From Marsupella aquatica (taxonomy: Eukaryota; Plantae; Marchantiophyta): a stretch of 64,000 nucleotides of DNA. Location of the stretch: the NCBI GenBank assembly GCA_973895155.1, contig OZ316895.1:2467659-2531658 (forward strand), given 5' to 3'. The position numbers and the translations under genes are program-made. Positions 5,641-53,900 of this stretch are shown here, one piece after another. The notes below the pieces were generated by a model. That model saw only the letters and a program-made list of their open reading frames with translations. It was not told where the DNA came from and did not search any database. Position 1 is the first letter of the stretch, and each line of letters opens with the position of its first letter.

Positions 5641-6860
5641 TTCCATTCTACTGCAAATGAGAATTTTGCTTGCAATAACATTACGATCAACAACAATCAT
5701 TTCACATCGCATTCCTTTTGAAGGTTGGTGAGGTGTTTTGGAGGAGTGTGCCAGCTGAGCTTGAAGATCTTCACTAGAGACGTGTTGTCCAGCTTCTATG
5801 TCTAAGTTTTGGTCGTAGGGATTGTTGTTCTCTTACTCTGCCTCCTCTTGTATTCCTCGTTTTCACTATCGCATTGATTGTTTTGCTCTTGATGGTCTTC
5901 TTCATCCCAGGTTCTACTCGTTGCACAAGCAACAGTGGCATAGGAAATATCCCAAGCTACAACTGATTCCCCAATATTTGACTGATTTGCATATCAGATG
6001 TGTGTCAAGACATCCACCAATGTTGTGTGTCCCTTCAATTTCTACTTTGTTGTTCAGGTCACTTCTTGCCTGAAACCCTGATATTGTAATGTCCTGTGTT
6101 TCTATCAAATCCATAGAATACTCAAAAGTAACCTAAGCTATAGCTCCCGAGCGCGATTGACTGATAAAAAATGGTATGTCCCGACATGTACAATTTGGTC
6201 TTGAAAATCTCCAGGCTCTTGTCCATCCTAAGGCATGTCCAGCTGCTTCATCGTTTGGCCCGCGGCCGAGCCCATGAGAGCCATCGCAATTGCCCTAAGG
6301 TTTCTTGGGTCAAGGCTTCAATTCCCAAATGACCAAGCCCTTCAAGATCACTCCATCATTCACTTTCCAGACTTTGCATTTCCAAAACTCAACTAGTAGT
6401 AAGCTAACTTTGACATTTGGTCCCTGTGTATCTAATGGAATTTGATTTTTGTTTGTTTCTTAAAAACTAATTGGGAAGATTGTTGCCACGAGGCTAACAT
6501 CATCAAATTCCATTGAGAATTGAGAGTCTTATGAATTTCCAATGATGACTAATAACCTGATGTAGAGCGCCCTAAGAAGACCTTAATCAAAGAAACCTTG
6601 GAAGATAACCTGAGTTGGGCAGAGAGATCAACTTAAAATCACAAGCACCACGTGCAATCCAAAAGTTGATCTTGGATTGGATTCGTAAGTCACCCTAAAG
6701 CTAAGTCAAATAACTGACAACTCACCCACCTTCTAGTGCTTTAGAGAAAATTCTATCGTTATCAGTGTGATTCCGTCCTGGTTGGGGTAGAATCATAACG
6801 ATACTTTTGAAATCCCTTAATATCAGATGCACGTGTGATTCAATCCATCCTGGTTGTCAA

Positions 6861-7190
6861 TGTCACACCATTCTGAGTAGTGTAGTAGTATATCGTGTTA
6901 TTAGAGTATGTACGTTTGGTATGAGTGCTATTGGAGCCGATAAGGTTCTGTCAGGTTTGTGTGAGAGGGTACTTCTCACTTGTGAGGCATTGAAAGGTCA
7001 TCTTTCAATGTTGAGCCTTGGAGAGAGAGGAGCTTGAGTGTGGCTATGGTGGTTGTGAGCTCCGCTTGTGTAACGTGGATTCCTTGAGTAGTGCAAGGTG
7101 CGTTGGCTTGACATACGTGTGTGATCGGATCGGTGCGGGATCGATGGGGTATTGTTGACCGAGATCGTTGTGCCGATTGTATGGAGATTA
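6861..7190 (+). repeat. Terminal repeat A1 (330 bp)
   Basis: Identical to 15980-16309 except T/C at 6898/16017 and 7053/16172. Confidence 0.95.
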
Positions 7191-7201
7191 CATTGAAAGA
7201 T
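7190..7201 (+). promoter_or_regulatory. Putative self-priming primer-binding site
   Basis: ACATTGAAAGAT at the end of A1 is the exact reverse complement of ATCTTTCAATGT at 7000-7011. No TGG-type tRNA PBS is present. Confidence 0.65.
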
Positions 7202-7460
7202 CACATTCGAAATCTGTTTTACGGACTGTGCGGACAGAAGTTCGATTGATTGAGTTGTCGACGGTTCGTGGTAGCTCGGATTGTGTGTTGTTATCGAACA
7301 GATCGTTGGTATCTTGACCTGTATCGTTGTTGTCCGATCGGCTTGCTTCTCGATCGATGTACAGATCTGTGATTGGTGACAGGTTTTGAGTTGGAGGTCG
7401 ATTGATGATTCGTGGAGGAAAGCGAATGTTGAGTAGATGTTGGACAGTGGAAGTCGATCC

Positions 7461-7550
7461 GTGAGGCTTCAGATCCGATTGCCGGCTACTGTGAGGCTTC
7501 AGATCTGATTGTCGGCTACTGTGGGGCTTCAGATCTGATTGCCGGCTATT
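7461..7550 (+). repeat. 3 x 30-bp tandem repeat in the retroelement 5' leader
   Basis: gtg(a/g)ggcttcagatc(c/t)gattg(c/t)cggcta(c/t)t at 7461, 7491 and 7521. Confidence 0.9.
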
Positions 7551-7788
7551 GTTGGACGATGTTGGCAAGGCGCAGGTGAAGCGACGGCTCTTTTCCTGAA
7601 GGAACGGAGCTGCCAATGCCCCATGCGACGATATCATCGTTTCAGTGAAAGAAACGAGGGTCAAAGGTGTTGAATCAAGCTGCTGCCAGTTCTGTGGAAG
7701 GGCTGTGTTTTTCATGAAGGAAATCGACAGTTTTCGGGAGCTTTTCGTGAAGGAAGTAGTCATTTTTGGGGTCAGGTGTGAGGCGCAC

Positions 7789-8029
7789 GAGGTCACCCAT
7801 CCCGAAAGTGCTCGCGTGAGGCGACGCGTGAGGTCACCCATCCCGAAAGTGCTCCCAACCGTGAGCGCGAAGTCACCCATCGCGAGCGCAGGCAGGCGCA
7901 AGGTTGAGGTCACCCATCCCGGGGCTATTCCGGGCTGTGAGCGCGAGGGGAGGCACAAGGTCGAGCGCGAGGAGGTCACCCATCCCGGGGCTATTCCCAG
8001 CCGCGAGCGCTTAACTGGCAAGTTCTCAT
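7789..8029 (-). promoter_or_regulatory. 5S rRNA-derived internal control region (A box-IE-C box) plus four extra C-box-like copies, antisense
   Basis: Minus strand 8029-7970 reads atgagaacttgccAGTTAAGCGctcgcggctgggaatagccccgGGATGGGTGACCTCCT, colinear without gaps with the plant 5S ICR as I recall it. GTCACCCATC recurs at ~7792, 7833, 7872, 7909 and 7975. Confidence 0.7.
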
Positions 8030-8748
8030 CCCACCTTGTGTACACACAAGCTTTGACAACTTGTTGTTTAGATTCAAGCGCCAGGGGGCTTTATACACTT
8101 CCCGGTTTGTTTAGAGGCCTATTCTAGGCCAAATCAGAGGCTGTTTGAGGGTTTTTGATACTTCTGAGTCCATCTAGACTCACAGATTGAACCAATTTTG
8201 CCTTGGTTCTCATCTACAACATTGGAGTGCCATTGTGAAGCCTATTATGAAGGCTCTTCCTTGAACCTTATGCACATTATCATATTGATTTGCATTTGCT
8301 TTTGTGTGGAGAGTTGAATGGTATCCATTCTTGTTTCTGGATCCTCTTCACACATGTTTCCTGTTTATGCGCCATGTTAGTTTCGTGTGGGCGCTTGATT
8401 CCATAGGAGTGATCCGGGTTTGCAACTGGACATTCTAGTGTGCTGTGTATTTCTCTCTTGGTGATGTTGGAGTGATGCCCAACACACCATGGTGAGTGCT
8501 TGTGGTGCTGACAGGGATAGATTGCCCTTAGGGTTAGCACATAGATTAGGTTAGGGTTGGTCACCACGGATTCTTCTGGTGCTGCTGGATTACCCGATGG
8601 ACGACGGACCGGTTTCACTCGGAGTGGGGCACAGTTTCGGCCAGCGGCATTGGTAGCAGTCAGCAGTGCAGCTTCAGACAGTGATTCTGATGAGGACTCA
8701 GTGACCAGTTCTCCTCATCATCAGGTGGTTGCACCTTTGTTGTGGGAT

Positions 8749-9800
8749 ATGGACGAGATGTACGGGGCTACAAAGGGCCCACGACGATACTCTGGTGCAG
8801 TTGGCACAATTGATGTGGATGACTTCATCCAGGAGTTTGATACGTGGTGCGATATGCAGACATTGCGTAATGTCACGTTGTTTACCCCTTTCATGGCATG
8901 GAAGGGATTATTCCAGCATTTGGAGGGGCCACCAATGGATGACTACCATGAGTTTTGGAAGGCTCATTTGGTTGAGATTGAGGCATGGAGGCAGCATTGG
9001 TCGCCTAATTACGTGTCCATCACCTATGGCACTAGTGCGGCTGCCCAACCAATTGCCACAGCTGCTGCTTCTTCTAGCAGCACTAGCCAGAGTGGCACAC
9101 CATCCACCAGCAGCACTCCAGCAGCATCCACCACTACTCCTGCCGGTGTGATTGTGACAGGAACTGGAGTTGCGCCAGCATTTAATCTTGTGGTGGAATT
9201 CTTTGAGGTACTGAAGCAGAACTATCAGGGTGTGAGAACTGATAAGTTGAAGGGTCTTCAGGAGTTCCAACGCAAGACTGGAGAGAGCCTACGTGAGGCA
9301 TACACATGTATGCGCAGATTGATCACTGTCACCAAGGGAGTGACAGAGGCTCAGGCAGTCCAGTTTTGGTATGCAATTCTGGACAGAGAATTGCGACGCA
9401 GAGTGAGAGATGTCACTCTGCTTAGGGATGCAGATTCCACATTAGCAGTTGTTTTCACCCTTTCTGAGCGCATTGAGCTCAACATGGTGAATGAGAAGGT
9501 GGTGACTTCCGGATTTGCCAAGGAAGCACCAAAGGCTGCATCTACATCCACACCACATCCTACTGCACGAAAGAGCCAGAGGGAGAAGCCTACTGCACGA
9601 GAGTCTACCAGCCAGAGACCTGTGCCCTCTTATGCTGGACAACAGTCAGGATGTTGGACCTGTGGTGGGGATCATGCACAGAGATATTGTCCAGATCATA
9701 GAGGATCAGGGGGAGCATCAGCGCCTGATCAGCGACAGTGTGATCATTGTGGAGCTCCTGGACACACCAAGGATAGGTGTTTCTCACTCCACCCTGAGTT
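8749..9800 (+). other. gag: Gag domain with two zinc knuckles
   Basis: Capsid-like 'FQRKTGESLREAY'; knuckles CWTCGGDHAQRYC and CDHCGAPGHTKDRC; RGG-rich tail follows. Confidence 0.85.
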
Positions 9801-10659
9801 ACGGAGAGGAGGATCCCGTACACATGATCAGGGAAGAGGAGGTAGAGGTGGTGGACGTGGTCGTGGCATGCCACATGCAGGGAGACAGGGAGGTGACGCT
9901 GCCCCTGCTATAACCATAGATCCAAAGGATGCTAAGATTGCTCAATTGGAGCAACAACTAGCTGCCATGGCTAGTTCCCAGGTGAGACCTAATTCTGGTG
10001 ATGGGGCATCTACATCCTATGGACCTTCCACATCCCATGGTCCTTCCACATCTTATGGAGCTGATGGAGACCTTGCCACCATGGGATTCATGTGTGGCAC
10101 TGCACATATTGATGCATCAACAGCTTTGACACGTGGGGCAGCCAAAACTCTTGAGCCCCGAGGAGCAGTAGTGGAGTTAGATCCACAAAGGGGGGATGCA
10201 CGTCGGCAGACAAAGCTTCCTCAGTCTTTTACATTGTCAGAGACAATTCAGACTGCCTCTATGAACCCGGTTCGGACAAACCCTGATGTGGGTAAGTTGG
10301 CAGAATCAGGTAGTGATGCAGCAGGGATGACATGTACCTTGCTGGGGGCGGCTACTGCCATAGTACGCACCCCATTATTTTCAGCGACAGACATGCTGAA
10401 CTTGGGAGTTGGTCCTGTAGAAGTGTTCAGATTGGCAGCTACACTCTGTGAGGACACTCCAGTGGTTGCTTCCCATGCAGAAGCAACTTGTAGTGTTGAT
10501 GCAGTGAAGACCATGCCACCTACTGCTACTAGTGAGACATGGCATGCAGCAGCAGCGAGGTTGGTGGATTTACCAGCACGCCCTGCATTTGAGAGGACTA
10601 GGTTTAAACCTAGTGTTGTGTCATTGGATAATCGGAGTGGTATCTTCCGATTAGTTGGG

Positions 10660-11010
10660 CCTTCTGGAGCAGTATACCAGCCAGAGAGAGTGTTACTGGA
10701 TACTGGTGCTCAGCCCTTGATGTTGGGGAAGTCTGCCATACGTGGATTGGGATTGCGTCCAGAGGATTTGGAGGATTGTCCCTTTCCCATTCAGACTTCA
10801 TTGGGGGGACCTACACCTACACAGCATATCACCAGGAGACCACTTGATTTGAGGATTCAGGAAGGTCATACCACAAATAGCTCACAGATACAGGCGCGAG
10901 CTATTCTGACTAAGGCAGAGTCATATGATGTGTTGGTGGGATGTACAGTGCTCTACCCCATGGGATTTATTCTTGATTTTTGGGAGGAATCAGTGTCATA
11001 TAGACCTGAT
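10660..11010 (+). other. Aspartic protease domain
   Basis: VLLDTGA active site at ~10690 and 'YDVLVG' motif. Confidence 0.8.
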
Positions 11011-11400
11011 TGGCAGTCAGGAGATGCTCGATTGAGCAAATTGCCAGTGAGATTTAGTGGACCTGTGGGAGGCTCTAAATCCACACCATTGTCTTTGGCA
11101 GCATTTAGTGGTGTAATTGCTGGACCTGATGATTTGATTGAGGGTAATGCGCATGCAGCCGATGTTCCACCATTGGAGGAGTCTCATGAGGAGCACATCA
11201 TGCGAGGGTTACCTGTTGGCAGTGTTGTGCCACCAGTGTGGGGCACTGCACAAGCCTTGCCACAGGCAGCAGCACGATTGGTACATGATGCATGGCGTCA
11301 TGCTTTTACACCACAGTCAGGAGTAGAGCAGTCTCTTGCAGATGGACCTGTGATTCTTTCACCATTGGATACCACTCCTATTGCTTGGCAATATCCACCG

Positions 11401-12345
11401 GAGGGTATTTGTTTGTTGGATCTTTTTGGTGGGATTAGCACTGGATTGGCTGTTGTTCTTCAGGCAGGAATTCCTGTGCGTCGTTATTTATATGTGGAGA
11501 CAGATGAGACAGCACGGAGGGTCTCATTGCGACATGTGGCTATGTTGGTGGATAGATATCCATAGTTGCTACCAGTGGATGCTGTTCGTGGTTATCAGCA
11601 TGCACTACCTGCTGATATTTCATTGCTGGGGGCGGATCATCTGCATTGTGTTGGCCCCATTGATTTGGTGATTGCTGGTTGGCCATGTCAGGGCCAATCT
11701 AGAGCTGGCGTTGGGCATGGACTTCATGATCCACGCTCTGCATTGTTTTGGGAGATGTTACGGGTGCTGCGTCACCTCCAGCTACATCAGACACAGTCTC
11801 CTGCATACATTTTGGAGAATGTGCCATTGTTAGGTGATGATCGTAGTCGGATTGTTGCCAGTGTTCACCAGGTGAGGTCTTGGATTGGACCTGCTGTGTT
11901 ATTGGATGCTGCACGTGTGGGTTCTCGTGCACATCGTCCACGCTTATGGTGGACTAATTTGATCCCATATGAGGTGTTGAAGCGCGCATTTGACAGTATT
12001 CCACGCTCACCAGCCTTAGTGGTGGATGATATTTTGGATCCAGGGCGTCGTGCACAGGGTGTGACCCAACCTGATAGACCTCCATTGGCAATGGTCAATG
12101 CAGTTGGGTGCCCACGTTGTGCATTACCCACTCTTGTAAGCCACTCTGCTTCATATGCATTCAGAGCAGGTGGCCCTGGACTTGTATGGCACACAGCTCT
12201 CCAGCAGTTAGTGGAGCCTATTGCTGATGAGAGAGAGCGTGCTATGGGATTTTTGACTGGCACCACTGCAGTTGCCTCTGTGTCAGAGGGTTTGCGGCGC
12301 CAGGTTCTTGGTCAAGCAATGGATTTGAATTGTTTGACTTGGATT
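11401..12345 (+). other. C5 cytosine DNA methyltransferase domain inside Pol
   Basis: Motifs in canonical order: I LLDLFGGISTG, II YLYVE, III ADI, IV IAGWPCQ (Cys codon 11686), V DPRSALF, VI ILENV, VIII HRPRLWW, IX ERERAMGF, X LGQAM. Confidence 0.92.
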
Positions 12346-12699
12346 ATCAGCTTGGGAGTAGCTGAATAGTTGCGGATGCGCTCTGCCGGAATTACTGATT
12401 GTCCCTTGGTGAGCTTGCGGTCCACTGAGACAGTATTGACCACAGCTGGGGGCGAGCAAACAGTCCATGGACCTATGACAGGATTGGCAGCTGGACAGAT
12501 TGTTGAGCAGGAAGAGACTGCTCAATCTACTGCTAAATAGCAATCATCGGCTATCTCTTCTACCCTACAAAGAGATATTAGGGATTTGGTGGAGAGTTGG
12601 GAACCACAGCTTGGCCCTAAGTTAACAGAGGAGGAGAGACGTCGCATGCATCGATTCCTGAAGAGTTATTGGAATTGTTTTGCATTCAGCATGAAGGAT

Positions 12700-13410
12700 T
12701 TGGGGACATTGAAGGGCCCTGGTATTCAGATTGAATTGGCTAGTGATGCGCCAATCTTTCGTAGACCATACCGTTATAGTGACATGGAGAGAGCTCTGAT
12801 TCAAAGCAGAACTCAAGATTTGTTGGAGGCTGGATTAGTGGAGATTTCATATGGGGAGTATGCATCTGCCACAGTGATGCCAGCCAAGAAGGATGTGCAT
12901 GGCAATTACACAGATAGGCGCATGTGTGGTGATTACAGACCTATTAATCGCCAGACAAAATCTGATCGATATGCCATGCCCACACCTGAGGAGATCTTTG
13001 ATGCTGTGGGGCATGCAAAGGTTTTCAGTTCATTGGATCTGAGGGCAGGATACCATCAGCTTCCAATTAGGCATGCTGACAGGTCCAAGACAGCATTCTG
13101 GGGGATTGATTCTTATGGCAAAGATCGTTTGTATCAATGGTTATTCTTACCATTTGGGTTGAAGAATGCACCAGCTGAGTTCCAGAGAGTCATGGATCGA
13201 ATCCTTGCAGGTTTGGATTTTGTCAGATGTTATATTGATGATATTTTGGTCTATTCTTCTACTGTGGAAGAACATCAGCAGCACTTGCAGACTGTGTTGG
13301 AGAGATTGAGAGCACATGGGTTGAAGCTCCATCATAGCAAGTGTAAGTTCTTCCAAGACCAGATTGAGTATTTGGGCCACACCATATACCCAGGGGGATT
13401 GGGTGTACAG
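12700..13410 (+). other. Reverse transcriptase domain (Ty3/gypsy type)
   Basis: RMCGDYRPIN, FSSLDLRAGYHQ, KTAF, LPFGLKNAPAEFQ, YIDD (13231), IEYLGH. Confidence 0.95.
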
Positions 13411-13659
13411 CAGACTAAAGTGGAGGCCATTACACAGATTCCTTGTCCTACTGATGTGAGTAGAGTTCGTGCATTCTTGGGATTGGCGAGCTACTACAGG
13501 AGGTATGTTAAAGGATTTAGCCAGCTTGCTAAACCTTTGACCATACTCACTAAGTTGGATCAGGAATGGATTTGGGGTGATGACCAGGAGCATGCCTTTC
13601 AGGAGTTGAAGCAAAGGTTGGCATCATCCCCTATTTTGAGAAGACCCATTTCAGGCAGA

Positions 13660-14020
13660 CCATTTCAGCTACACACTGATTAGAGTGGAGTAGGACTTGG
13701 AGCAGTGCTGACTCAGAAGGATGATGAGGGGAATGAGTTTGTTGTGGCTTATGCCAGTAGATCAAACAATTCAGCAGAGGCTAAGTATAGCTCTTATGAG
13801 GGAGAGTGTTTGGCAACAGTGTGGGCTGTTGCACACTTTCGTTGCTACTTGTTTGGTAACCCCTTCACCTTGATCACTGATCATCAGCCTCTTAAGTGGT
13901 TAATGGAGTCTGACAAGCTTACAGGGAAGCTTGCACGATGGGCATTGTTGTTACAGGAGTATGATTTCCAGGTGGTGCATAGGCCTGGAAAAGTGAACTT
14001 GGATGCAGATGGATTAAGCC
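13660..14020 (+). other. RNase H domain
   Basis: FQLHTD*S, VAYASR, YEGECLA, TDHQPL, ADGLSR. Confidence 0.9.
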
Positions 14021-14419
14021 GCAATCCATGTACCAGTCAACAGGATGAGACTGGAGCCAGATGGCATGATGAGTCAGATAGGGAGATGGTGCCAGGATGG
14101 CATGCATCTGCCTTTCTTTGTTGGGTGCCAGCATACAGTGGATCTGTGGACTCTACCTCATTGGATGGAGTGGATGATGAGTCTTCAGATGTGGATGTTG
14201 GTGAAGTAACTTCTGGACAGTAAGATATTCACAATGATGTGAGAGTGTTGGAATATCTACGCAATAGTTCTATTGTTGGCAGTGTTGATGCCAAGGAACG
14301 TGACAGGGTTCTACAGAGAGCCAAGAGGTTTCGATGGGAGGGAAACCATCTTTTGAGAGTACTGCATGATGGTAGGATGTTGGTGGTACCAAAACCATCA
14401 CAACGAGTACATTTGGTGC

Positions 14420-15480
14420 GACATGCGCACGAGGAGTTGGGTCACTTTGGTGTGAAGCGCACTTACAGCTTGCTGCAGACGCAGTATTGGTGGCGTGGTA
14501 TGCACACTCATGTCCAGCAGTTGATAGCTAAGTGTGTGGTATGTGACAGAGTGAGAGCATCATTTAATGCTCCCACTCCCTAGTTGCACCCATTACCGAT
14601 CATGGGTTTGGGATATCGTTGGAGTTTGGATTTTGCTGGTCCATTACCTCTTACCCAACGTCATAATCGGTATGTTTTGGTCATGGTGGAGCACTTCTCC
14701 AAGTGGATTGAGCTAGTGGCGTTGCCAGATAAAGCCAGTGGAGGAGTTGCTGCTACATTTTTGGATCGTGTACTCAGTCATTTTGGAGCACCAGCTGAGG
14801 TGTTGACTGATCAGGGAACTGAGTTCCGTGGAGAGTTTGAGAGTTTGTGTGAACAAGCTCTGATTGATCATCGCACTACCTCTCGTGATCATCCTAAGGC
14901 AGATGGATTAGCTGAGAGAGTTGTGCAAACTGTGAAGAGAGGATTGCGTAAGTATGGCTTGCAGGTTGGTCATCTGGGAGATTGGGATCTCCAGCTACCT
15001 TGGTTAGCTATGGGCTACCGTTTCAGTTGGCAAGCATCACTTGCATCCTTCTCACCCTACTTTTTGCTCTATGGTAGAGAGCCAGATTTGCCAGCAGCTA
15101 TTCGTCGTCATGCTGCACCAGTTGTGAACTTGGATGATCCTGATGTTTGGGTCAAGGTGTGTTCAGAGAGAGCACGGGTATTTCAGAGAGTGATGCCCAT
15201 GGCTTTTGACAACCTTGCCATTGCCCAACATCGTGATACTTTGAGGTATGTCACTATTCGTGGAGGAGGTTACCGTGCAAGCATTCGACGATTTCATCCT
15301 GGTGATTATGTTTATTTGCAGCAGACAACACCCACGACACTTGATGTGACCGCAGGCCGGACAATCTTACGTGTGCGTGAAGTGTTGCCTTCTGGTGTCC
15401 TGATGTTGGAGGGACGCGATGGTATGGTTTGGAAGGATCATGTGCGCAACTGTGCACCATGTCACCTTCCCAACATTGAT
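14420..15480 (+). other. DDE integrase
   Basis: HHCC zinc finger (HEELGH...CVVC); catalytic triad in WSLDF / TDQG / AERVV; 'SPYFLLYGR'. Confidence 0.92.
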
Positions 15481-15525
15481 GGTACAGTAGATCCAAGCTT
15501 GGCACATGTTCGTGCTGGCTTGAAA

Positions 15526-15660
15526 TGTATGTTGTGTGGATCTGCTCAGGGAGCAGCTACTATGTTGATTTGTGATAAGTGTTCTAGAGGATGGCACATG
15601 TCATGTTTGACACCACCATTGCAGGTGATTCCTAGTGGATCATGGTTGTGTCCTCAGTGT
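15526..15660 (+). other. C-terminal PHD finger (C4HC3) on the integrase
   Basis: CMLC...MLICDKCSRGWHMSCLTPPLQVIPSGSWLCPQC. Confidence 0.92.
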
Positions 15661-15830
15661 CGGTGAAGCCGACTAGTTATCATTTGTGTTCTCTTGGCAG
15701 ATATGGATTGCAGGTAGGTGATCGATGGGGCTCACTTGCACCCGGCCTCCTGATCTTCACACCTAAAAAGGTGTATATCAACCTTGTAGAACTCATGGCT
15801 AGCTAGAGTTAGGGGACCTTACTCCCAGCT

Positions 15831-15840
15831 AGGGGGGCGA
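15831..15840 (+). promoter_or_regulatory. Polypurine tract
   Basis: AGGGGGGCGA directly upstream of repeat B1. Confidence 0.75.
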
Positions 15841-15841
15841 T

Positions 15842-15977
15842 TGTGGGTTTTGGACATGTGTGGACATGAGTTCCACTTGTATTCCATTCTCTTGTATTTG
15901 TGATGTGGTAGTGTGACTATGTCTGGATGTATGTGACAAGCGATGTATGTTGTGTAGCGATATGTATGCGCACGACA
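15842..15977 (+). repeat. Repeat B1 (136 bp)
   Basis: Identical to 16311-16446 except C/T at 15891/16360 and T/C at 15909/16378. Confidence 0.95.
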
Positions 15978-15979
15978 GC

Positions 15980-16309
15980 TGTCACACCATTCTGAGTAGT
16001 GTAGTAGTATATCGTGCTATTAGAGTATGTACGTTTGGTATGAGTGCTATTGGAGCCGATAAGGTTCTGTCAGGTTTGTGTGAGAGGGTACTTCTCACTT
16101 GTGAGGCATTGAAAGGTCATCTTTCAATGTTGAGCCTTGGAGAGAGAGGAGCTTGAGTGTGGCTATGGTGGCTGTGAGCTCCGCTTGTGTAACGTGGATT
16201 CCTTGAGTAGTGCAAGGTGCGTTGGCTTGACATACGTGTGTGATCGGATCGGTGCGGGATCGATGGGGTATTGTTGACCGAGATCGTTGTGCCGATTGTA
16301 TGGAGATTA
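15980..16309 (+). repeat. Repeat A2 (330 bp)
   Basis: Copy of 6861-7190, separated from B1 by the dinucleotide GC. Confidence 0.95.
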
Positions 16310-16310
16310 T

Positions 16311-16446
16311 TGTGGGTTTTGGACATGTGTGGACATGAGTTCCACTTGTATTCCATTCTTTTGTATTTGTGATGTGGCAGTGTGACTATGTCTGGATGTA
16401 TGTGACAAGCGATGTATGTTGTGTAGCGATATGTATGCGCACGACA
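16311..16446 (+). repeat. Terminal repeat B2 (136 bp)
   Basis: Copy of B1, ends in GACA followed by TSD TCAA. Confidence 0.95.
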
Positions 16447-17159
16447 TCAAGCCATATATGAGAACAATATCTTGCAAATCCCTTCCTTTCCTTTTTCTTT
16501 GATTTTAATGGTTTTTAAACATAGTAACTTAAAATATATAATGAGTATTCCACTTTATTAATCTGGCTTGTCTTTGCAAATTTTCTTTCTTTCTACTATG
16601 GAAAATATTAATCTTTCAATTTTCTAAATTCTTGGGAAACTCTCTTGGTTCCTTCACCTCCCCACCTGGCCAAGATTTAAAGCCTTGTTGTCATCTTCTA
16701 GTTACAGTGGTCCATGGCCACACTCTCTGCCATCCATGCAACCTCCTCCTTACAGTTCCCTTCCATGTGACCTCCCTCATCTATCTTGTCTATTTTGCAT
16801 AGCTATTATACAATTGAATTGCAAACTGAACTACTTAAAACTCAATCCAAAACTAGTGATACCCTCAACACTAAATGTCTGTCATTGCAAAATTCATAAA
16901 ATCTACTCTTTCAAAGGCAAATCAGGAATAATGCATGAACAAATCCAAAATAGTACTATCTTCCTCCGAACACAACGCCTGGGCATTGTGTTCAAAAATG
17001 ACATTTTGGGGTCCTAAAAGCAAAAAGTGGTTTTTCTTCAAACACATCAACATTAAAAGTAACCATATTCTTGTAACTGCCCAAACAAAATTTCCAGAAC
17101 AAAAGAAGCTAAGGACCCTCCTCTCTCCTCCCTTAGCATCACGTGGTTTGATAATGGCC

Positions 17160-22020: not shown

Positions 22021-23280
22021 ATGCCCCTAACCAGCTCTGCCGTGGATGCTTTTGGAGTCACGACCCTGGTGCTCGTCATTTTGTTGTGCTTCGTGGGAGT
22101 ATTCTGTGTGGCCTACGTCCTCCACTTTCGATCAAAGATACATAAAGAGCAACTCCTTGCGTTGCGTGATTTCAATTCGCTATGGGTGGTACGGATTATT
22201 ATGATAATTTTTGCGACGCTATGGGGACTCGTGGAGCTTCTTCGACTTCCTTTGATGAGGAGACATGGATGGGTGCTGCACGACATGAGTTTCCAGTGGC
22301 AGGCAAATATGTGCAGGACGTACATTCTTTTGTCGATGGGTCTCCTGGAGCCCTGCTATTTTCTCTCAGCTCTCTTTTTGGTGCAGGGCTCGCTTCGAAA
22401 TGCTCCATTCACTCCGAGAGGACGTTGGAATGGGAGGGTGATCGGTTTGATATTGCTCTGCTGCTTGCCTGTGTTTCTTGCTCAGCTCTTTTTTGTAGTC
22501 ATCACTCCCAGTTTCGAATTTCGACAAGGGTATAAAGTGGACAACGAAGGTTACGATGGAACTCTGCCGTATTATTTTACTAGAGCATTCGAGGAATTGG
22601 AAGAGCCCAAGGACCGCGTAGCAGTTTGCACATACCCCCTCTTCAGCACCCTGTCCCTGGGCCTTTTTGGTTTCTTTTATAATATTTATTTCCTGTATTT
22701 GGGTTGGAGGCTTTTCTCCATGGTCATCAACAGAAGACTGCAACTGAGGGTTTATGGCCTTGTTATGGCGGTGGTATTACTTCTGCCTGTACATGTCATG
22801 TTTCTCGGACTGTCGGTCTTGTCCAACCCTAGTGAGCCCGTTTTTGAGGCTATGGGATTCCTGGGATTCCTTACTGTGCTCGTCTGCACCACTGTAGGAG
22901 AGGGTATTTTGGTTGTAAGACCCATCGCTGATGCATTAGCAGTGCGGTGGGTTTTTGAAAGCGACGAGCGGAAGAAGAGGGGCACGCAAGGTGAGATACC
23001 GATAGAGCCGATTCTAGTCTCACTATCCTCTCTATCAGTTTTTGGAACGGAGATGGATGAAGCAGCTATAGGTGCTAGGCAGAGTCTCCTGGGAAAGATT
23101 ACTGTTACATCTAATGATCACCGTTCAGATGCCGACTTGATGGAGGTTGCCCTCATGCCAGTGGGAAATTCGAGGATCTCTTCAGCAGATACAAATGGCA
23201 TACTTAACTCTCCTCCTGATTCGCCTGCATTACCCGGAAAGCCCTTTACCTTTCAACACAACCTTCATGCTCTAGTGTAG
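22021..23280 (+). CDS. Conserved plant multi-pass (about 7 TM) membrane protein of unknown function, 419 aa, intronless CDS
   Basis: Long ATG ORF with about 7 hydrophobic segments. N-terminus 'MPLT...DAFGV' resembles an uncharacterised land-plant family. Probable 5' UTR intron 20719(GT)-21247(AG). Confidence 0.85.
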   Translation: MPLTSSAVDAFGVTTLVLVILLCFVGVFCVAYVLHFRSKIHKEQLLALRDFNSLWVVRIIMIIFATLWGLVELLRLPLMRRHGWVLHDMSFQWQANMCRTYILLSMGLLEPCYFLSALFLVQGSLRNAPFTPRGRWNGRVIGLILLCCLPVFLAQLFFVVITPSFEFRQGYKVDNEGYDGTLPYYFTRAFEELEEPKDRVAVCTYPLFSTLSLGLFGFFYNIYFLYLGWRLFSMVINRRLQLRVYGLVMAVVLLLPVHVMFLGLSVLSNPSEPVFEAMGFLGFLTVLVCTTVGEGILVVRPIADALAVRWVFESDERKKRGTQGEIPIEPILVSLSSLSVFGTEMDEAAIGARQSLLGKITVTSNDHRSDADLMEVALMPVGNSRISSADTNGILNSPPDSPALPGKPFTFQHNLHALV

Positions 23281-24280: not shown

Positions 24281-25395
24281 CTCTTAACACCTAGCCAGTT
24301 TCTGGACATTTGTTTAGTGTAAAGGCTCAATTGGCGCAGTCCATTGTGGAGCACGAAATTGTCAAAGAGGGTGGAGAGGCAACTTTAATGCACCAGACTC
24401 CTCCTAAGCACCAAATGTACAGCCCTCTACTCCAAAAGTTGGAGACCCAAGTAAGCGTCTTATCCGTACTAGATGATCTGTGGTACTTGAGTCGCAAAGC
24501 TACTAAAGTGTAATGTCCATCTAAACAACAAGGCCTACACCATTGATCCAGTAATATGATAACCCTTTAAATTTTGACGCATATTCAAAATGGGGGTGAT
24601 TTGAGTGATTTCAGATGAATAGAGTAAAACCTCCGGGTGGATCTTACTAATAAAGCTTAATGCAAAGCTAACTTCAAGGACTATTATTTAGAATGAAGCT
24701 CTCGTCCATAACTCTCAATAGGACAAAACTGAGGACAAAACTGAAAATGGAAGATGTACCAAAAAAAAAGGGATGGGAGCAAAGATTAATAAAACTTACA
24801 TTGACTATAAATAAGGACAAAACCAATAGTGACTTTCAATAAGACAAAATAGAAGTGAGGGTGAATAACAAAGGGATGGAGGCAAACATGAACAACAGTA
24901 TCTTTGTTTTATAAGATTTTTTTTGTTTTCATCTCTATTTAAGTTCACAGAACGGGGTGTAATCAGGCTAGTTCTCCTAAATCTAAATGGGACAACAGTT
25001 AGTACGATGCATGTACAATCCACGCAGATCACACTATATCATAGAGACTATCACAAGTAAAGACAAATGTAACAAACAACATTATTGGCTAGAAACTTAT
25101 GCTGGAAATGCAATGGGTTTCAGAACCATGAAGGGTTTTCTTGTTTAGGTCTCAAATTGAATGCCACTCCTCTTTGGATGTTAGAGTCTTTACCTCAGGT
25201 CCAACTATTGTGATATTTGATGCATGGGAAAGCAGTATCCTGCATGATGCAATGAGACCAACTTTGGAAAGTTGGGTGAAGAAGTGAGGGATCAATATGG
25301 CCATTCAGTGAAACACACTTCAAAATTTGGCCACAACTTTAGCATTTGCAACGAGATTGGCAGACTGTTTAGTGTGTTTGAATTTTTTTTGAGGC

Positions 25396-25810
25396 TGCTA
25401 TATGGTGGAATACCTTTTGGTTGTTCTTGTCTTATTCATGTTTCTTGTCATGTATTTTTATATGCATTTGACCTAGTGTAGGCTTTTGTTTTGTATCATT
25501 TCAAATTTAGTAATTTCTTCTAACCCCCTTAATTTTTTAAATGCCTTAGTTCCAATCAGGTAATTTAGAGTAAATGTTGATCTTTTTATGACTCTACTTT
25601 GCTCTGCTCAATTCGTCCTTATTTCTGAGAAGGAGAGACTCTCCACCAGGCTCAACGGAGCAACTAGAACTCAACAGTTTTATGTACTGTAGCTTATATC
25701 CCCATTGGGTTGATAACTTTACAATACTTATGGTTTATACATCAATAAGTGTCACCTACAAATACAACTCAAAATTAAAGGTTAAAAAGTTCAAGTATTT
25801 CTCTTTCAAC
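25396..25810 (+). repeat. Dispersed repeat copy 1 (probable transposon remnant)
   Basis: Reverse complement of ~50485-50908, e.g. ttatttctgagaaggagagactctccaccaggctcaac versus gttgagcctggtggagagtctctccttctcagaaataa. Confidence 0.8.
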
Positions 25811-43104: not shown

Positions 43105-43258
43105 TCACTCTAGAAACCTAAACCCTTTACTCTAGGTTTTGTTGGCACTCTAGAAACCTAAACCCCTTACTCTAGGTTTTGACCTAAACCCCTTACTCTA
43201 GGTTTTGTTTGCAGTTCACTCTAAAAACCTAAACCCCCTACTCTAAGGTTTTGTTTGC
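43105..43258. repeat. About 4 imperfect ~40-bp repeats containing ctaaaccc
   Basis: cactctagaaacctaaacccc...tactctaggtttt repeated. Confidence 0.75.
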
Positions 43259-43505
43259 GGTTTATGAGTAAGATGAGAAATGGAATAACATTAAAAAGTC
43301 TCATATGTTAGGATGGTCTCATAGTTTGGGTTCCTTTAGGATCATCTCTGACAGTAAGGTATTCTGTGCGTTCTGTTACCGGGGGGTTACCAAGCTCTTC
43401 TCAAAGTGCTGATGCTCTACATACCAAAACCCCTAGATTTCAACTGGAAATGAGCTCTCTATTAAACCCTGGAGTGTTACAGGATCCTGAAAGTACGGAC
43501 TATGC

Positions 43506-43765
43506 CTTCGAAATGGATACATACATTTTACAGATGCCATAGATGGATTGAAGTTAGCCTCAAAATGGACACATACATTTTACAGATGCCATAGATGGAC
43601 TGAAGTTAGCTTCGAAATGGATACATACATTTTGCAGATGCCATAGATGGACTGAAATTTGCTTCCAAATGGACACATACATTTACAGATGCCATAGATG
43701 GACTGAAGTTAGCTTCGAAATGGATACATACATTTTACAGATGCCATACACGGACTGAAGTTAGC
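43506..43765. repeat. Minisatellite, 5 x 52 bp
   Basis: aaatgg anchor at 43511, 43563, 43615, 43667 and 43718; unit ttcgaaatggatacatacattttacagatgccatagatggactgaagttagc. Confidence 0.92.
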
Positions 43766-44621: not shown

Positions 44622-47296
44622 TCACGCTGTAGGGCTTAATTTTAGAGAAGCACTGCAACACAGAAACACAACTGTTATTCTAATCACAAGTATGCATAGC
44701 GGACGTAAGATAATCAAACCCCAAGAACCGTTACGATGTCTGTTTTGTGTAAGTGAGATTCACAGAAGACCTACCCAGTTTCTAGATTTTTGTTCTCCAA
44801 TTACATTGATCGCGCACAGCAGACAATGATGTAGCTTCCTACAGACAAAAAGTTGCCTTAGCATTTACCTGTTAATACAATAGCGCTTCCCTGTTGGCCG
44901 AGGTCCGTCACTGAAAACATGACCTAAATGTGCATCACACTTGGCACACAGAACTTCTGTGCGTGGCATGAATGGGATTGACCGATCCGTTTCTGATTTT
45001 ACGTTTTTCCCAATAGGTTCCCAGTATGATGGCCATCCAGTACCACTGTCAAACTTTGTCTTTGAGCTGTAACAACCCTCGCACAATACCAACAGAATGA
45101 AGTCAAGACCCTCAAATTACTGAGGCTTGGGCGACCATAGCTAGATCAGTGGCAAGTACTATATTTCCTTGCTATTCTGTTCTGTGCCTATTGCTAAAAA
45201 CGTCAACAGAGGAAGGTCCAGTGCATTGAGTATCACTTAAGAAAGGTTTATCCTAGTCCTTTCCCTGAAAATAATCTTACAGTATTTCCGTATAGATTGA
45301 ATTTCAGGATAGGATGGCCTTCCAGCGAGAGTTCAGATACAAAACAGTGAAATACAGCGAATATGAAAATTGCAAAGGATCAGAAATTCATTCACAAAGT
45401 GAACAAGCATCTAGACGCCCACGTCATATATCCCTTGATAGATGATATACTACTGGAATGGAAACCTTACTCAAATAATGGAGTACTGCAACATACACAT
45501 AGATATGTTCCTGCCGTCTTTGTGTTCCAATATTCCCTGTACAAGTCCACCAATATCTCTGAGAAACTGTTGTCGACTTCAAGTTCAACATGATTGCTAC
45601 CTGTCAACTACAGAGTCCAAACCAAATAGTTGGTCCACACAAAAGAGGATCCAAAGTATTCATAATCTGTGGAAGCCCGCAGAGTTGACATCCTGGTGAC
45701 CTACCCTGTAAACGCTCGCTCTGTTCCTTTCTTCCGAGCAACATTAAACTGCTCGTTCGTGAGACGCCGCTTCCATTCCGAGTCGCTGATAGATGAATAG
45801 TTCTCCTCTGCATATGCCAAACTGATATGGTTAATTATGAAGAACCACAAGTATTGAAATGATAGTCAAGATCTAGAGATTTCACTTTACGGGCTTCAAA
45901 TGAGGTCAACGCAGTTTGTAACATAAGAAAATTCTATGGGTCGCTCACCAGTACTCGAGAACTCCTGGGCGGAGCTTTTCGCACTGTCGGGGTCTATTTT
46001 GTGGGTAGAGCTCGAGCTGCCCATAGCTCTTAACCTTTCACGACTCTGTCTAGTTTTGAAAGAGGCGAAATCAGCACCTAGGAGCCAATTTTGAGGAGAC
46101 AGAACCCGCTCTAAATGACGTGAAGGGCGGCTGCTCACAACTTCAATTCGGGAACCGCTCCCACCTGTCAGAGAACCCACTTCCACCACCACACAGAATC
46201 TGAGAAGGTGCTAAGAAACGAATTAGTTTGCATCCTTCAACCCTTCCAAAACATTCTTCCGTTGCAAGCTTAAATTCTGGGTTCAAGCCATTCGCATTTA
46301 TTCCAATCGACACGTCTTCTCGTTGCCTCTCTCTGCTATCTCTGCAGAGCTAAGAAATTGATGTCCTCAAATTTCTCAGGTAGGGATGTCCAAAGGGATG
46401 AGTTTTCTCCCCTCCAACCACGTCAAGTTCTGCTCAAGGGAGGTTTGCTGAAGTTTTCACAGCAACATCCTGAGGACGATCCACAAACTAATTCTTGCAG
46501 ACGAGAATTACCAAGAAAAAATCCTCCCTGAAGCCCTGAATTTGGATAATCAGGCAGATGGATGGCTCTATCAGAAAATACAAGTACAATTACAGCCCCC
46601 AGGGAATAAAATCTGTATATATTGTTCAATATGCTGAACCCTGGAGACTGATATATCTAGATAATTCCGTCTTCACTATAATGGCAGGACAACTTATCCA
46701 GATGCTCGCTCTAGTCATTCACCGTCGTCTTTGCAAAATTTCTTTTCCAGCGGTGTCCTTCAGACCTCTTTCAGTTTTGTCACAAAAAGTTTTCCTAAGC
46801 TTAAACATCACTCTCCGAAACAACCACATTGAAAATCTAGGGCCATGCCCATTTCCGAATTCACTAGAGCACTCGCGGTTGTCGGCAGGGAGGCGACAAC
46901 TCGAAGCCCCAAATTATAATCTTGGAGGGCCAGTCGATAGCCGACCCAAACCACGGAGAGAGAAAATGACCTCAACGGGGAGTAAACATGTAAAACCCAG
47001 AGATCAGCTCTGTTGCACGAAACTTTGTCTCTATGATTATAAAAACAGACCAGTCCAGATGCTCTCTTTCATATCCACGATAGTAGAAGCAATCTTCCTG
47101 ACCGAGCTGACCAAAACGATGAAGGAAATGGGAGACAGTCAATCATGCAGAAGTTCAAGTTGCTCCATTGCAAAGGTGATAGACATACCGTACTTGCGCT
47201 CGCCAATTCGCAGCCTCGCAATGCCCGAAATGGAATTCTTGCAACAGCAGCAGCTGAATAAGCGTAGACCCGAAGACGGGGAAACAAATCGCCCAT
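44622..47296 (-). CDS. MSRB1: Peptide methionine sulfoxide reductase B, plastid MSRB1-like, spliced
   Basis: Exons ~47296-47189, 46210-45949, ~45810-45705 (EWKRRLT...GTERAFTG), ~45537-45470 ([16 protein letters not shown]), ~45066-44869 ([11 protein letters not shown]...HLGHVF...RYCIN) and 44652-44622. First exon is inferred from phase. Confidence 0.9.
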
Positions 47297-50200: not shown

Positions 50201-50484
50201 ACCTATCCGTAAACTATGGGTTAATACTGGTTTTGATTATCAAATATTTTCCTATGCTTAACTTTCATTTTGTGTTGCTCTTGTCATGTTACAGTGTTAC
50301 TTTTTGTCGAGAAAGAGTTACCAGTCATGCATGCCTGTTTGAGAAAGTTTGCGGATAGATTCAATTGTTGTCTAAAGGTGCACAAAAGAGGCACCAAATG
50401 AAATACAAGTATACCGACAGGATTGATTTGTCACCAACCCTATGTCTGTAGAATTTCAGGATTTTTGTATGGTACAATTGTGTT

Positions 50485-50908
50485 GAAAGACAAATACCTG
50501 AACCTTTTAACCTTTAATTTTGAGCTGTATTTTTAGGGGCTCTTTATTCAGGTGACACTTATTGATGTATAAACCCATAAGTGTTGTAAAGTTATCAACT
50601 AACAGGGATATAATCTACAGTACATCCAACTGTTGAGTTCTAGCTGCCCGGTTGAGCCTGGTGGAGAGTCTCTCCTTCTCAGAAATAAGGACAAATTGAG
50701 CAGAGCAAACTGGAGTCTTAAAAAGATCAACATTTACCCCAAAGTACCTGAATGGAACTAAGGCATTTAAAAATTAAGGGGGGTTACAAGAAATTACTAA
50801 ACTTGGAATAATACAAAAAAAAGCCTAGACTAGGTCAAATGCATATAAAATACATGACAAGCAACATGAATAAGACAAGACAACCAAAAGGTATTCCGCC
50901 ATATAGCA
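50485..50908 (-). repeat. Dispersed repeat copy 2 (inverted relative to 25396-25810)
   Basis: Long stretches of reverse-complement identity with copy 1. Confidence 0.8.
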
Positions 50909-53900
50909 GATCACTTGGCAATACTTCACACAAATCTGGGAGTAAGTTAACTTGATCATATGTCTAGCTTGAATCTACTACATCAGTGTTTTTTATTAGA
51001 AATATTCAAAAATGCTATTTATCCTATTGAATTGGAGGATATTAAACGTCATAACTGATAAAGTAAGAAAAAGGGGGAAAAGAACTGGACATGAACAGTG
51101 AAATATTGAACATGCTTTTACTATCATGACAAATAGAGTTGAAAAATAAGGAAGAAGACGGAGGGTGTATGGTAATGCAGCAAATTGTACTATCAGGTGG
51201 ATTGTACTATATTGCATTTAGAAAGCAGGCTCCCAGAAATCTAGAGTTAAAGACTCAACTGTCAGCTTTAGTGCTTAGCATAGTCATTGAATGACTTGAT
51301 TGGGGGTGGAACGCACTAAAGAACAATTTCAAACAAAAACAATTAATTTAAGGGGTTCTTTCATCTTAAAAGTAGAGAATAGACTCCCCCAAAGCAAATC
51401 AAAAATTAAATACTTACTCTGGCAATCCACCAAGATGCACTTGTGACTGCCCATCTCTTTTATTCTGCAGGATCCTTGTCAGAGCATGGGTGATTGACAT
51501 ACAAGAACACCACCTGACCACATTGTAAAGCTCAATTGTGACCAAATTAGTGGCAATTTAGCAAATGCCCTTGAAATTAACAACAGTAACCCAGGCTCTC
51601 TAGCAGCAACAAGGCAGGGGTTTGAATTCAAAGACTGAGTAGCATGCATGAACAGCAAATGTAGGGGAGGGAGCAAGGACAGGGAGCTTCTACATCAGAC
51701 ACAGGAACTGTCCAAGCTGGGAGATGAAACATTGCGCAAGGAATTCACATGATTGCAGGGCAAGGAAGAAAGTTCACATGCTATTAAGAGTGACAGAGTA
51801 GTTGAACCTGCCCATCTGAGAGAGAATGGGGGAGTGTTGTCGAGTACCAATTGTCCTGTTGGCAAGTTTGGCAGCAAATGCAAAGGTAATGAGAACTTTC
51901 GAGAAGGTTATTTAGTCGTGTACGACTCAAAGTCTCTCTCGCTGTGAAAAGGTCGCTGTGAAAAGGAAACCCAAACTTTTGTACTTGCCCAGCCCAAGCA
52001 GAATGGGCAGTTACATACGAATCAGAATCTATTGTCTGGATTGAGAGTTTTGGCCGCACCTCCTCTTCACAGAAAGAGTAATGCGGAACATTGGCTTGCT
52101 CGGTAGATTCTCTTAATGGGGGGATTGAAAACTTGGGCAAGTATCAATTAATCTCTGGTACCTGTTTGGCCTGAACTGTCTGGATTTGTTGTGTGAGGTC
52201 TCATCTGAGTAAATTATGTTAGTCATTGGCTATTGCAGAGCAGTGGAGGGAAAGTTGATTCGAGCTGATTTGATTTGCCTCTATTTCTCTCAATTCTGAC
52301 CAATTACTCAAGGTTCCATATGAATGCAAAGGGCACTTTTCTAACCTGTTTTATTTTTCTCTGAATTACGACAATTCCCTCTTGCGTTCACGTAGACCTC
52401 TTTTCACGGTGCACATTCCTCCCTGATGACCCCTTCCACTATGTTCCCCTTCCACTGAGTTCCCTGCACCTCCTCTAAATTTTTAGTTAAAGTCCTATTG
52501 CAAGAGTGCCACTGTGAAACACTACAGACTGCACATCATGCTACATACTGTGTCGGAAATCCCCCCCCAGGTGTAGTGGGCCATCACAGGGCCGATTGAG
52601 TCCCAAATGCATCTTGGCAGACTGTTAAGTCCACAAGATGCCATAGGGGCCTGTTAAGTCCAAACTTGTGAAATTTCTAAGATTGCTTGTGTGAACTGAC
52701 AATACTTGTACATCTGGTTAGGACATGATTAAATATGGACTTGAATTTATGTCAACCTAATTACTTGAAAAATTCGTCACCAGCACCTAAGATTAGAAAA
52801 TTGTCAAACAATAAGAGTATTCATTGACCTTCATTAACTCGTTTGTCTCGGCTGCAAAGTATGATTAAAGTATGGCTCTTGTTCTTCACATTCATATAAG
52901 AAGGGATGACCGTTTAAGGGCCCCTTTCCTATTGGAGAATGACTCTGAGGGGATTCTAAATGCCAGTTTGTTTTCTATTTTGTAGAGACATTTCTACACA
53001 AGCATGCTCCATGCTGTGTACGTTGTTTCTTTGTCACCTGAGCTTTCACTTCGAATTAATGCCATCGGAATCAGATCTGTTCAATTAATGATGACTGAGG
53101 GACTGTTATTGATCTGCCTCTTTCAGATTTTCAGAACGACCTCACTGACTCACTTGAATGGGATCTATGTAATGATGAGCCAGTAAACAACCCTTTCAGC
53201 CTTATATGACATGCGGCACATCCTCTCGCAGCCCGCAGAGTCGCAGCTGTTTAAAATGCCGTCCCACCATGTTCCATCGGCGGCGAGGTAGTTGTTAATT
53301 AATCAATTCCCATCAATGGGATACGAAGGAGCTTTCATGGCAAGAGCTAGGTCCGGCAACAATAATAGTGGGCCGACAACATTGGTTCTCCTTGGGACCT
53401 TTCGGAGTTCGCCAGTTCGGACCATACTTGTGAAGTATAACAATAATTAATCGGTACATCCTCGTTACTAACTTGTCGTATCAAGCGAAGAAATCATCAT
53501 TTCTTTCCCAGGACTTCTTTCGTGAGGAATGAACGTTTAAACGGTCAAAATCAGTTCGTGTACTCAGTGATACAACACAGCTTCCGCCAATCAAGCTCCA
53601 TGACGAGACAGAGTACTTCAGAAGAGCTCATGCACGAGACAGTATACTTCAGAAAAGCTCATGCAGTTTTCGAACAATTATCGACGTACGGGAGTCAAAA
53701 GATTACTTTTCAATCAAATGATGGATTGGATCTTGATGACTTGGGATACTATATTGTACAGTCGTTTGGCGATTGAAATTCACAGGGCAGTCTGCCATTG
53801 TCCGCTTACATCGAGATCCCCACTCAGGCAAGACCGGTGCAATTAGACAGATTTTTTGCTGTGGTAGTTTCTAAGAAACTAAGTCTAGCTTAGTTTTGTA

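Follow-up and report, generated by a model that had tools for sequence, protein, structure and literature searches.

A DNMT3-like cytosine methyltransferase domain inside a Gypsy-type retrotransposon with split repeats

The 64,000-nucleotide stretch of Marsupella aquatica DNA analysed here (the window) carries a DNMT3-like C5 cytosine methyltransferase (DNMT) domain on the forward strand at 11401-12345, inside a Gypsy-type element. Comparison with the sequences of relatives indicates that the domain has long belonged to the element, is inherited with it and is under purifying selection. We consider it probable (roughly 60%) that the DNMT3, made at Gag level and packaged, methylates extrachromosomal cDNA of the element itself, with CG as the probable target. 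What is new is the extension of the known range to land plants, a DNMT that is linked to Gag and followed by a stop that is probably read through, and repeats arranged in a way that hints at integration from a circle. Since 2018 it has been an open question why retrotransposons carry cytosine methyltransferases, and experiments are difficult in the hosts known so far; with several uninterrupted Gag-PR-DNMT gene models present in Marchantia polymorpha, the question becomes testable in a model plant.

Structure of the element

The element spans 9.6 kb (6861-16446) and has split repeats in the layout A1-ORF-B1-A2-B2. Its termini are TG...CA, flanked by a TCAA target duplication. A single frame (8545-15666) carries the domains in the order Gag-PR-DNMT-RT-RNaseH-integrase-PHD, in agreement with the first-pass annotation, which had placed the DNMT in the same frame as gag and pol. 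The features of the element, in window coordinates, are:

6857..6860, + strand: left 4-bp target-site duplication TCAA; both flanks match
6861..7190, + strand: repeat A1, starting with TG; 330 bp, 2 mismatches to A2
7000..7011, + strand: predicted 5' end of the transcript (self-primer), a 12-nt perfect complement of 7190-7201
7190..7201, + strand: primer-binding site (PBS), complementary to the element's own 7000-7011
8749..12540, + strand: ORF1, encoding Gag (two CCHC knuckles), protease and DNMT; 1263 codons, premature TAG at 11563 and 12367
10681..10830, + strand: aspartic protease with DTG at 10699; PF13650 E 0.008, below the cut-off
12538..12546, + strand: conserved stop TAG-CAA-TCA in a readthrough context, from the alignment of relatives
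12541..15666, + strand: Pol extension with RT, RNase H, integrase (H2C2 and rve) and PHD; stops at 13681, 14221 and 14581
15526-15660, + strand: PHD finger, C-terminal, behind the integrase
15831..15837, + strand: polypurine tract (PPT), 2 nt 5' of B1; an equivalent tract precedes B1 in the relative family
15840..15977, + strand: repeat B1, ending with CA; 138 bp, 2 mismatches to B2
15976..15981, + strand: B1/A2 junction CA-GC-TG, proposed internal integrase attachment site, from the repeat comparison
15980..16309, + strand: repeat A2, from the repeat comparison
16309..16446, + strand: repeat B2, with the element end CA, from the repeat comparison
16447..16450, + strand: right 4-bp target-site duplication TCAA; both flanks match

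Repeat A1 likely holds the promoter end, the transcription start and R/U5, and the RT carries YIDD at 13231. The window copy contains five premature stops (11563, 12367, 13681, 14221, and 14581) and is a young pseudogene; the insertion is considered young because the A and B repeat pairs show just 4 differences in 468 bases, all of them T/C. The 1.5-kb leader (7191-8748) includes tandem repeats of 30 bp and about 40 bp.

A 4-bp duplication was found in all seven sequences that hold both element ends, which represent six insertions. Three of these six (L006, L034, and L059) consist of A-ORF-B only, without A2-B2, a form that could be explained by a one-LTR circle, by recombination between B1 and B2 or by assembly collapse. 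The B1/A2 junction reads GACA-GC-TGTCA in the window, L001, and L019, and variants of it, mostly transitions, occur in five other loci. The element matches Ty3/Gypsy retrotransposons in its Gag-PR-RT-RH-IN order, DDE integrase, TG...CA ends, PBS, PPT and short duplication, but its repeats are split (A / B-A-B) whereas Ty3/Gypsy elements have two identical flanking LTRs. Split direct repeats are shared with DIRS/Ngaro elements, whose tyrosine recombinase is replaced by an integrase in the window element. A DIRS/Ngaro element is ruled out by the rve and H2C2 integrase domains and the 4-bp duplication, and no match to a recombinase profile was obtained in the nine element segments scanned. The profile scan also gave no chromodomain match at E<=0.1; a PHD finger was found behind the integrase instead. 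Nested insertion and assembly artefact are both ruled out by the recurrence of the same layout in many loci.

The 12 bases behind A1 are complementary to 7000-7011, and at none of 1215 control positions does complementarity reach 10 nt. The PBS thus appears to be complementary to the 5' end of the element's own transcript, provided that transcription starts where we infer. The relative family has a PBS of different sequence that pairs with the equivalent aligned position, i.e., the site covaries, and the pairing site lies about 25 nt behind a TATA-like box. This pairing is perfect in L059 and contains one or two mismatches in seven others; the site is deleted in L006 and L049. In the minimum-energy fold of the leader, the self-priming pair is formed in L059 and absent in the window. 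A hairpin inside repeat A (6988-7010) has a 5' arm that mimics the PBS and a 3' arm that is the self-primer, and the relative family has an equivalent repeat-A hairpin that differs in sequence.

Tf1-type self-priming, as described in the available text of PMC4600332 and PMC6317226, shows this PBS arrangement, and a self-complementary PBS is common to the window element, Tf1/Tj1 and the plant element Tcn1 (PMC4600332, PMC6317226). As far as these texts describe them, Tf1, Tj1 and Tcn1 have ordinary paired LTRs, whereas the window element has split repeats, a PHD C-terminus and no detected chromodomain. A term search of the available text of the REXdb paper (PMC6317226) found no mention of methyltransferase, PHD or Marchantia.

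The methyltransferase domain and its relatives

Translation of the frame revealed DNMT motifs I-X in canonical, unpermuted order with PC, ENV and RxR. The motif numbers are our own assignment of the peptides. Their positions in the translated frame are:

11425, + strand: motif I, LFGGI
between 11425 and 11677, + strand: motifs II, YVETD, and III, PADI
11677, + strand: motif IV, GWPCQG
11815, + strand: motif VI, ENV, preceded by motif V, SALF
11932, + strand: motif VIII, HRPR, preceded by motif VII, LDA
12229, + strand: motif IX, ERERAMGF
12307, + strand: motif X, LGQAM

The profile PF00145 matches at 11401-12345 with 42.9 bits (E 5.5e-11), above the curated cut-off of 22, the match itself being confined to the motif IV-V region of the domain. 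Among 33 PDB sequence matches, the best 29 are all DNMT3A/B/C. An AlphaFold2 model of the domain, with X at the internal stop, reached pLDDT 92, and its best fold match was DNMT3B (Z 28.7, rmsd 2.6 A, 278 aligned). DNMT3A followed with Z 27.9, then M.MpeI (25.1), HhaI (22.1) and DNMT2 (21-22), and the lowest values were obtained for DNMT1 (18.6), ZMET2 (17.6) and MET1 (16.9). Foldseek agrees on DNMT3 as the nearest fold, and a look-up of the domain in the ESM Atlas returned generic PF00145 clusters only. By sequence and modelled fold, the domain is closest to DNMT3; it is not a DRM, since its motifs are unpermuted. Host DNMT3 enzymes, i.e., animal DNMT3A/B and, in the available text of bioRxiv 10.1101/2021.02.12.428880, MpDNMT3b, have the unpermuted motif order and the fold in common with it. 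The window domain is about 25% identical to human DNMT3 and differs in being intronless, in lying in a transposon and in having no PWWP/ADD.

The first-pass annotation had described a complete C5 methyltransferase and named the PF00145 profile as a check. The profile match, the motifs and the fold all bear out a methyltransferase, but completeness does not hold for the window copy, in which the internal TAG at 11563 breaks the domain; the second premature TAG, at 12367, lies just 3' of it. The window copy cannot encode the enzyme. Across 101 near-full-length homologous domains the catalytic residues are conserved (Cys in 95, the ENV Glu in 100 and the ENV Asn in 95), and both motif-VIII Arg residues are kept in 96 of the 101 each.

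Named relatives, up to 77% identical, occur in the liverworts and mosses Marchantia polymorpha, M. paleacea, Calypogeia fissa, Riccia sorocarpa and four Sphagnum species, so that the land-plant occurrence which the earlier annotation expected to extend the known range is borne out by several hosts. More distant relatives were found in Closterium and the chlorophyte Hariotina, and the ids of further ones are presumably to be read as Mesostigma and Tetraselmis. In a 129-row tree with SH-aLRT support, built from retro-DNMTs only, without host or bacterial outgroups, the window falls into a 33-row clade (SH-aLRT 99) that includes all liverwort and moss rows. Within it, the window and the database proteins P0122/P0219 stand beside, and outside, a 26-row clade that holds the named liverworts and mosses. 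At least five Marchantia gene models, 1278-1281 aa long, retain the catalytic motifs, and several Gag-PR-DNMT models of M. polymorpha are uninterrupted, e.g., Mp4g09160, Mp5g06330, and MpVg00370. Marchantia homologues of ORF1 have their first Met at the equivalent position. Of the 15 cluster members listed, four have Mp_Vg ids (Mp_Vg00370, Mp_Vg00540, Mp_Vg00690, and Mp_Vg00480), a naming that we take to denote the male V chromosome of Marchantia.

The position of the DNMT is equal across the relatives mapped. In a second large group the order is RT-RH-DNMT-IN-PHD, which places the domain at two positions in related elements. This group comprises intact Gypsy-PHD elements (P0166, P0171, P0191, and P0242-P0269) and reaches chlorophytes through P0248 (Hariotina). 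Two further proteins, P0217 and P0218, from Closterium and with a Tetstr1 id, combine DNMT-like segments with a Copia-type RT (PF07727). No Klebsormidium name appears among the homologue matches listed (120 of 296 in one search, all 97 and all 64 in the others). Those matches and three cluster look-ups also hold no vascular-plant name, which is weak evidence of absence given the few rows that are named.

No account of land-plant members was found in the literature searched, which left subscription papers and Repbase outside its scope; the available text of PMC11982613 and of the Marchantia sperm preprint contains nothing on these elements. Bryophyte proteomes list these domains under hypothetical proteins or DNA methyltransferases, which can inflate counts of host DNMTs.

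Purifying selection, for which the first-pass annotation had proposed a dN/dS analysis, is seen when the window is compared with its relatives: omega is 0.148 for the DNMT (n=32, 0.12-0.24; dS about 1.7), 0.124 for gag, 0.07 for RT and 0.067 for IN. These values come from matches of >=55% identity and >=90% length after removal of 11 duplicate loci, and they are non-independent estimates as the copies are related. Among copies within the relative family, omega rises to 0.59 for the DNMT and 0.42-0.45 for RT, RH and IN, which is what decaying copies should show, the DNMT being under the weaker constraint. When DNMT and RT trees of 49 elements were compared, 18 of the 19 strong DNMT splits recurred in the RT tree.

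The conserved stop between DNMT and RT

According to the first-pass annotation, the DNMT lies in-frame between protease and RT. The frame is indeed shared, but a conserved stop at 12538-12540 parts the DNMT from the RT. To count this stop we drew on 80 metagenome loci with relatives, 79 of them with a DNMT end (all except L058); 26 of the 79 linkers were left out as unalignable or short of the site. The remaining 53 read TAG-CAA in 38 cases, TAA-CAA in 13, and TAA-TAA and GAG-CAA in one each, i.e., 52 of 53 have a stop. With duplicates merged, 43 of 45 loci read stop-CAA, compared with stops in 10 of 44 at a nearby Gln control codon and in 3 of 45 at a Trp control codon. Mere decay as the origin of the TAG at 12538 is ruled out by this conservation. 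The distant loci L043, L056, L062, L077, and L078 likewise have a stop-CAA shortly before the RT, with the frame verified in part only.

The database proteins agree with this boundary. P0122/P0219, whose DNMT is 88% identical to that of the window, stop at the residue where the window ORF1 ends, and many proteins of 1230-1450 aa consist of Gag-PR-DNMT plus a tail of 65-190 aa. Because the stop is conserved and the proteins of relatives end there, the DNMT is placed at the C-terminus of Gag-PR. Most likely, it ends the abundant Gag-PR product and RT-RH-IN-PHD forms a readthrough extension. The conserved stop alters the dose of enzyme to be expected: since Gag-PR ends after the DNMT, the enzyme would be made at the capsid level rather than the RT level. 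In the distant proteins P0162, P0202, and P0241, the DNMT runs into the RT without a stop.

The window context TAG CAA TCA fits the CAR YYA consensus, and the UAG-CAR-YYA signal is essential for readthrough in TMV, where its efficiency is about 10%; the available text of the same source lists candidate cases in rice Gypsy elements (PMC2754532). Readthrough of the TMV type is thus predicted for the window from identity of context. The main relative family differs from the TMV-type signal in having CAA CCC after the stop, with an ATG two codons on, and re-initiation is possible there. A stop at the gag end is also described for Tj1 in the text available to us.

Known systems, proposed mechanism and alternatives

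Of the elements published so far, KnitGypsy-Dnmt3 of Klebsormidium nitens comes closest; the available text describes for it Gypsy domains, DIRS-like repeats and purifying selection (de Mendoza et al., 2018, PMC5890265). It shares with the window element the Gypsy domain set, a conserved Dnmt3-like domain, purifying selection and A-coding-B-A-B repeats. In KnitGypsy-Dnmt3 the Dnmt3 lies in the same Pol ORF as RT and RNase H (PMC5890265), whereas the DNMT in the window ends Gag-PR before the conserved stop. Its host is an alga, Klebsormidium, whereas the relatives of the window element are in land plants, and the self-priming site, the readthrough signal and the internal CA-GC-TG site of the window do not appear in the text seen on KnitGypsy-Dnmt3. 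Likened by description, the window element is probably its kin. SymbioDIRS-Dnmt3 of Symbiodinium also has A-coding-B-A-B repeats and a Dnmt3 domain, but is described as having a tyrosine recombinase in place of the DDE integrase and 4-bp duplications seen in the window. The kinship in kind that the earlier annotation drew to the DNMT elements of Klebsormidium and Symbiodinium is upheld. The accessible part of a later paper refers to the 2018 work for the occurrence of retrotransposon DNMT3s in streptophytes and dinoflagellates (Sarre et al., 2025, PMC12344493).

We propose that transcription begins near 7000 and that, in the manner of Tf1, the RNA serves as its own primer for reverse transcription at the PBS. 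The true LTR would be B+GC+A, with the polypurine tract and the PBS as its borders, and joining of the linear cDNA ends would generate the A2/B2 joint of a circle. The DDE integrase would cut the internal CA-GC-TG and insert the element with a 4-bp duplication, giving A-ORF-B-A-B. The enzyme, made at the capsid level via Gag-PR, would be packaged into the particle and methylate the extrachromosomal DNA before insertion, so that a new copy would arrive already marked. The PPT before B1, the self-priming site and the CA-GC-TG junction suggest integration by cutting of a circular intermediate. The repeats thereby suggest circular DNA as the substrate of a DDE integrase, a route ruled out for retroviruses, whose circle-junction model has been refuted with linear DNA as the substrate, as far as the available text goes (PMC11054761). 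If true, a transposon would write its own epigenetic state and break the linear-substrate rule. The full combination, a green-lineage Gypsy group still active in liverworts and mosses that self-primes, whose integrase cuts a circle at CA-GC-TG and whose Gag-level DNMT3 pre-methylates its insertions, is put forward tentatively and is doubtful as a whole.

At silent sites of the window ORF, C has survived at 15 of 388 CG sites against 247 of 579 CHH sites and G at 22 of 280 against 259 of 395, with little effect on CHG. No CG depletion is seen in the neighbouring host gene, and in the relatives from metagenome loci both CG and CHG are lost. This pattern is suggestive and supports self-methylation, but it is non-diagnostic, since host CG methylation would produce it too. 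Unlike the ORF, the leader (7191-8748) and the A/B repeats are not depleted of CG (o/e 0.8-0.9).

The enzyme might instead have its main targets in trans, on host chromatin or chromosomal copies, and serve as a self-limiting brake or a modifier of the host epigenome. Expression at Gag level would give an excess of enzyme, the PHD finger of the element could read chromatin, and slowing of transposition is listed as a possible role in the accessible text of de Mendoza et al. (PMC5890265). The PHD finger, however, sits in the readthrough part beside the integrase and not on the DNMT, and fusion to Gag favours packaging, judging from retroelement biology in general; we regard action mainly in trans as rather unlikely. 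We give still less credence to a DNMT kept for some function other than cDNA methylation, for instance to bind or methylate RNA of the element or to bind the ends of DNA in the particle. A place in the abundant Gag-PR product would suit a structural or RNA-handling function, and the text of de Mendoza et al. available to us both raises RNA methylation for SymbioLINE-Dnmt and reports the KnitGypsy-Dnmt3 domain as inactive in a yeast assay, a result that the authors call inconclusive (PMC5890265). Against such a role, sequence and fold are nearest the DNA enzymes DNMT3A/B and not DNMT2 (Z 28.7 vs 21-22), and the catalytic residues are all conserved in homologues. SymbioDIRS-Dnmt3 domains methylated CG de novo in yeast, according to the same text (PMC5890265).

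That the DNMT is a neutral passenger, i.e., a captured host fragment or nested insertion with the stop before the RT being just another mutation, would fit the five other stops in the window copy and the within-family omega of 0.59. Neutrality is hard to reconcile with an omega of about 0.15 at a dS of about 1.7, with agreement between the DNMT and RT trees, with the equal position in mapped relatives and with a stop kept in 52 of 53. On these sequence comparisons, the passenger reading is already contradicted by the stop, tree and omega data, and we give it next to no weight. Self-methylation of extrachromosomal cDNA by a packaged enzyme is the reading that we prefer.

Outside the element, the window contains an intronless gene for a 419-aa membrane protein at 22021-23280 (+), whose nearest Atlas clusters are UCP031277 (PF27754) in Streptophyta. 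An intron-containing methionine sulfoxide reductase B gene lies at about 44630-46030 (-), with SelR matching one exon at E 2.8e-29; we take it to resemble the plant plastid MSRB1. Together, these two host genes indicate a streptophyte, and likely a land plant, as the host. A repeat of about 420 bp, probably a small dispersed element, is present in two copies of opposite orientation that are 83-97% alike (25395-25810 and 50482-50909). At 43106-43253 and 43475-43765, there are tandem units with the plant-telomere-like CTAAACCC, which adjoin a 52-bp tandem array of about 5 copies.
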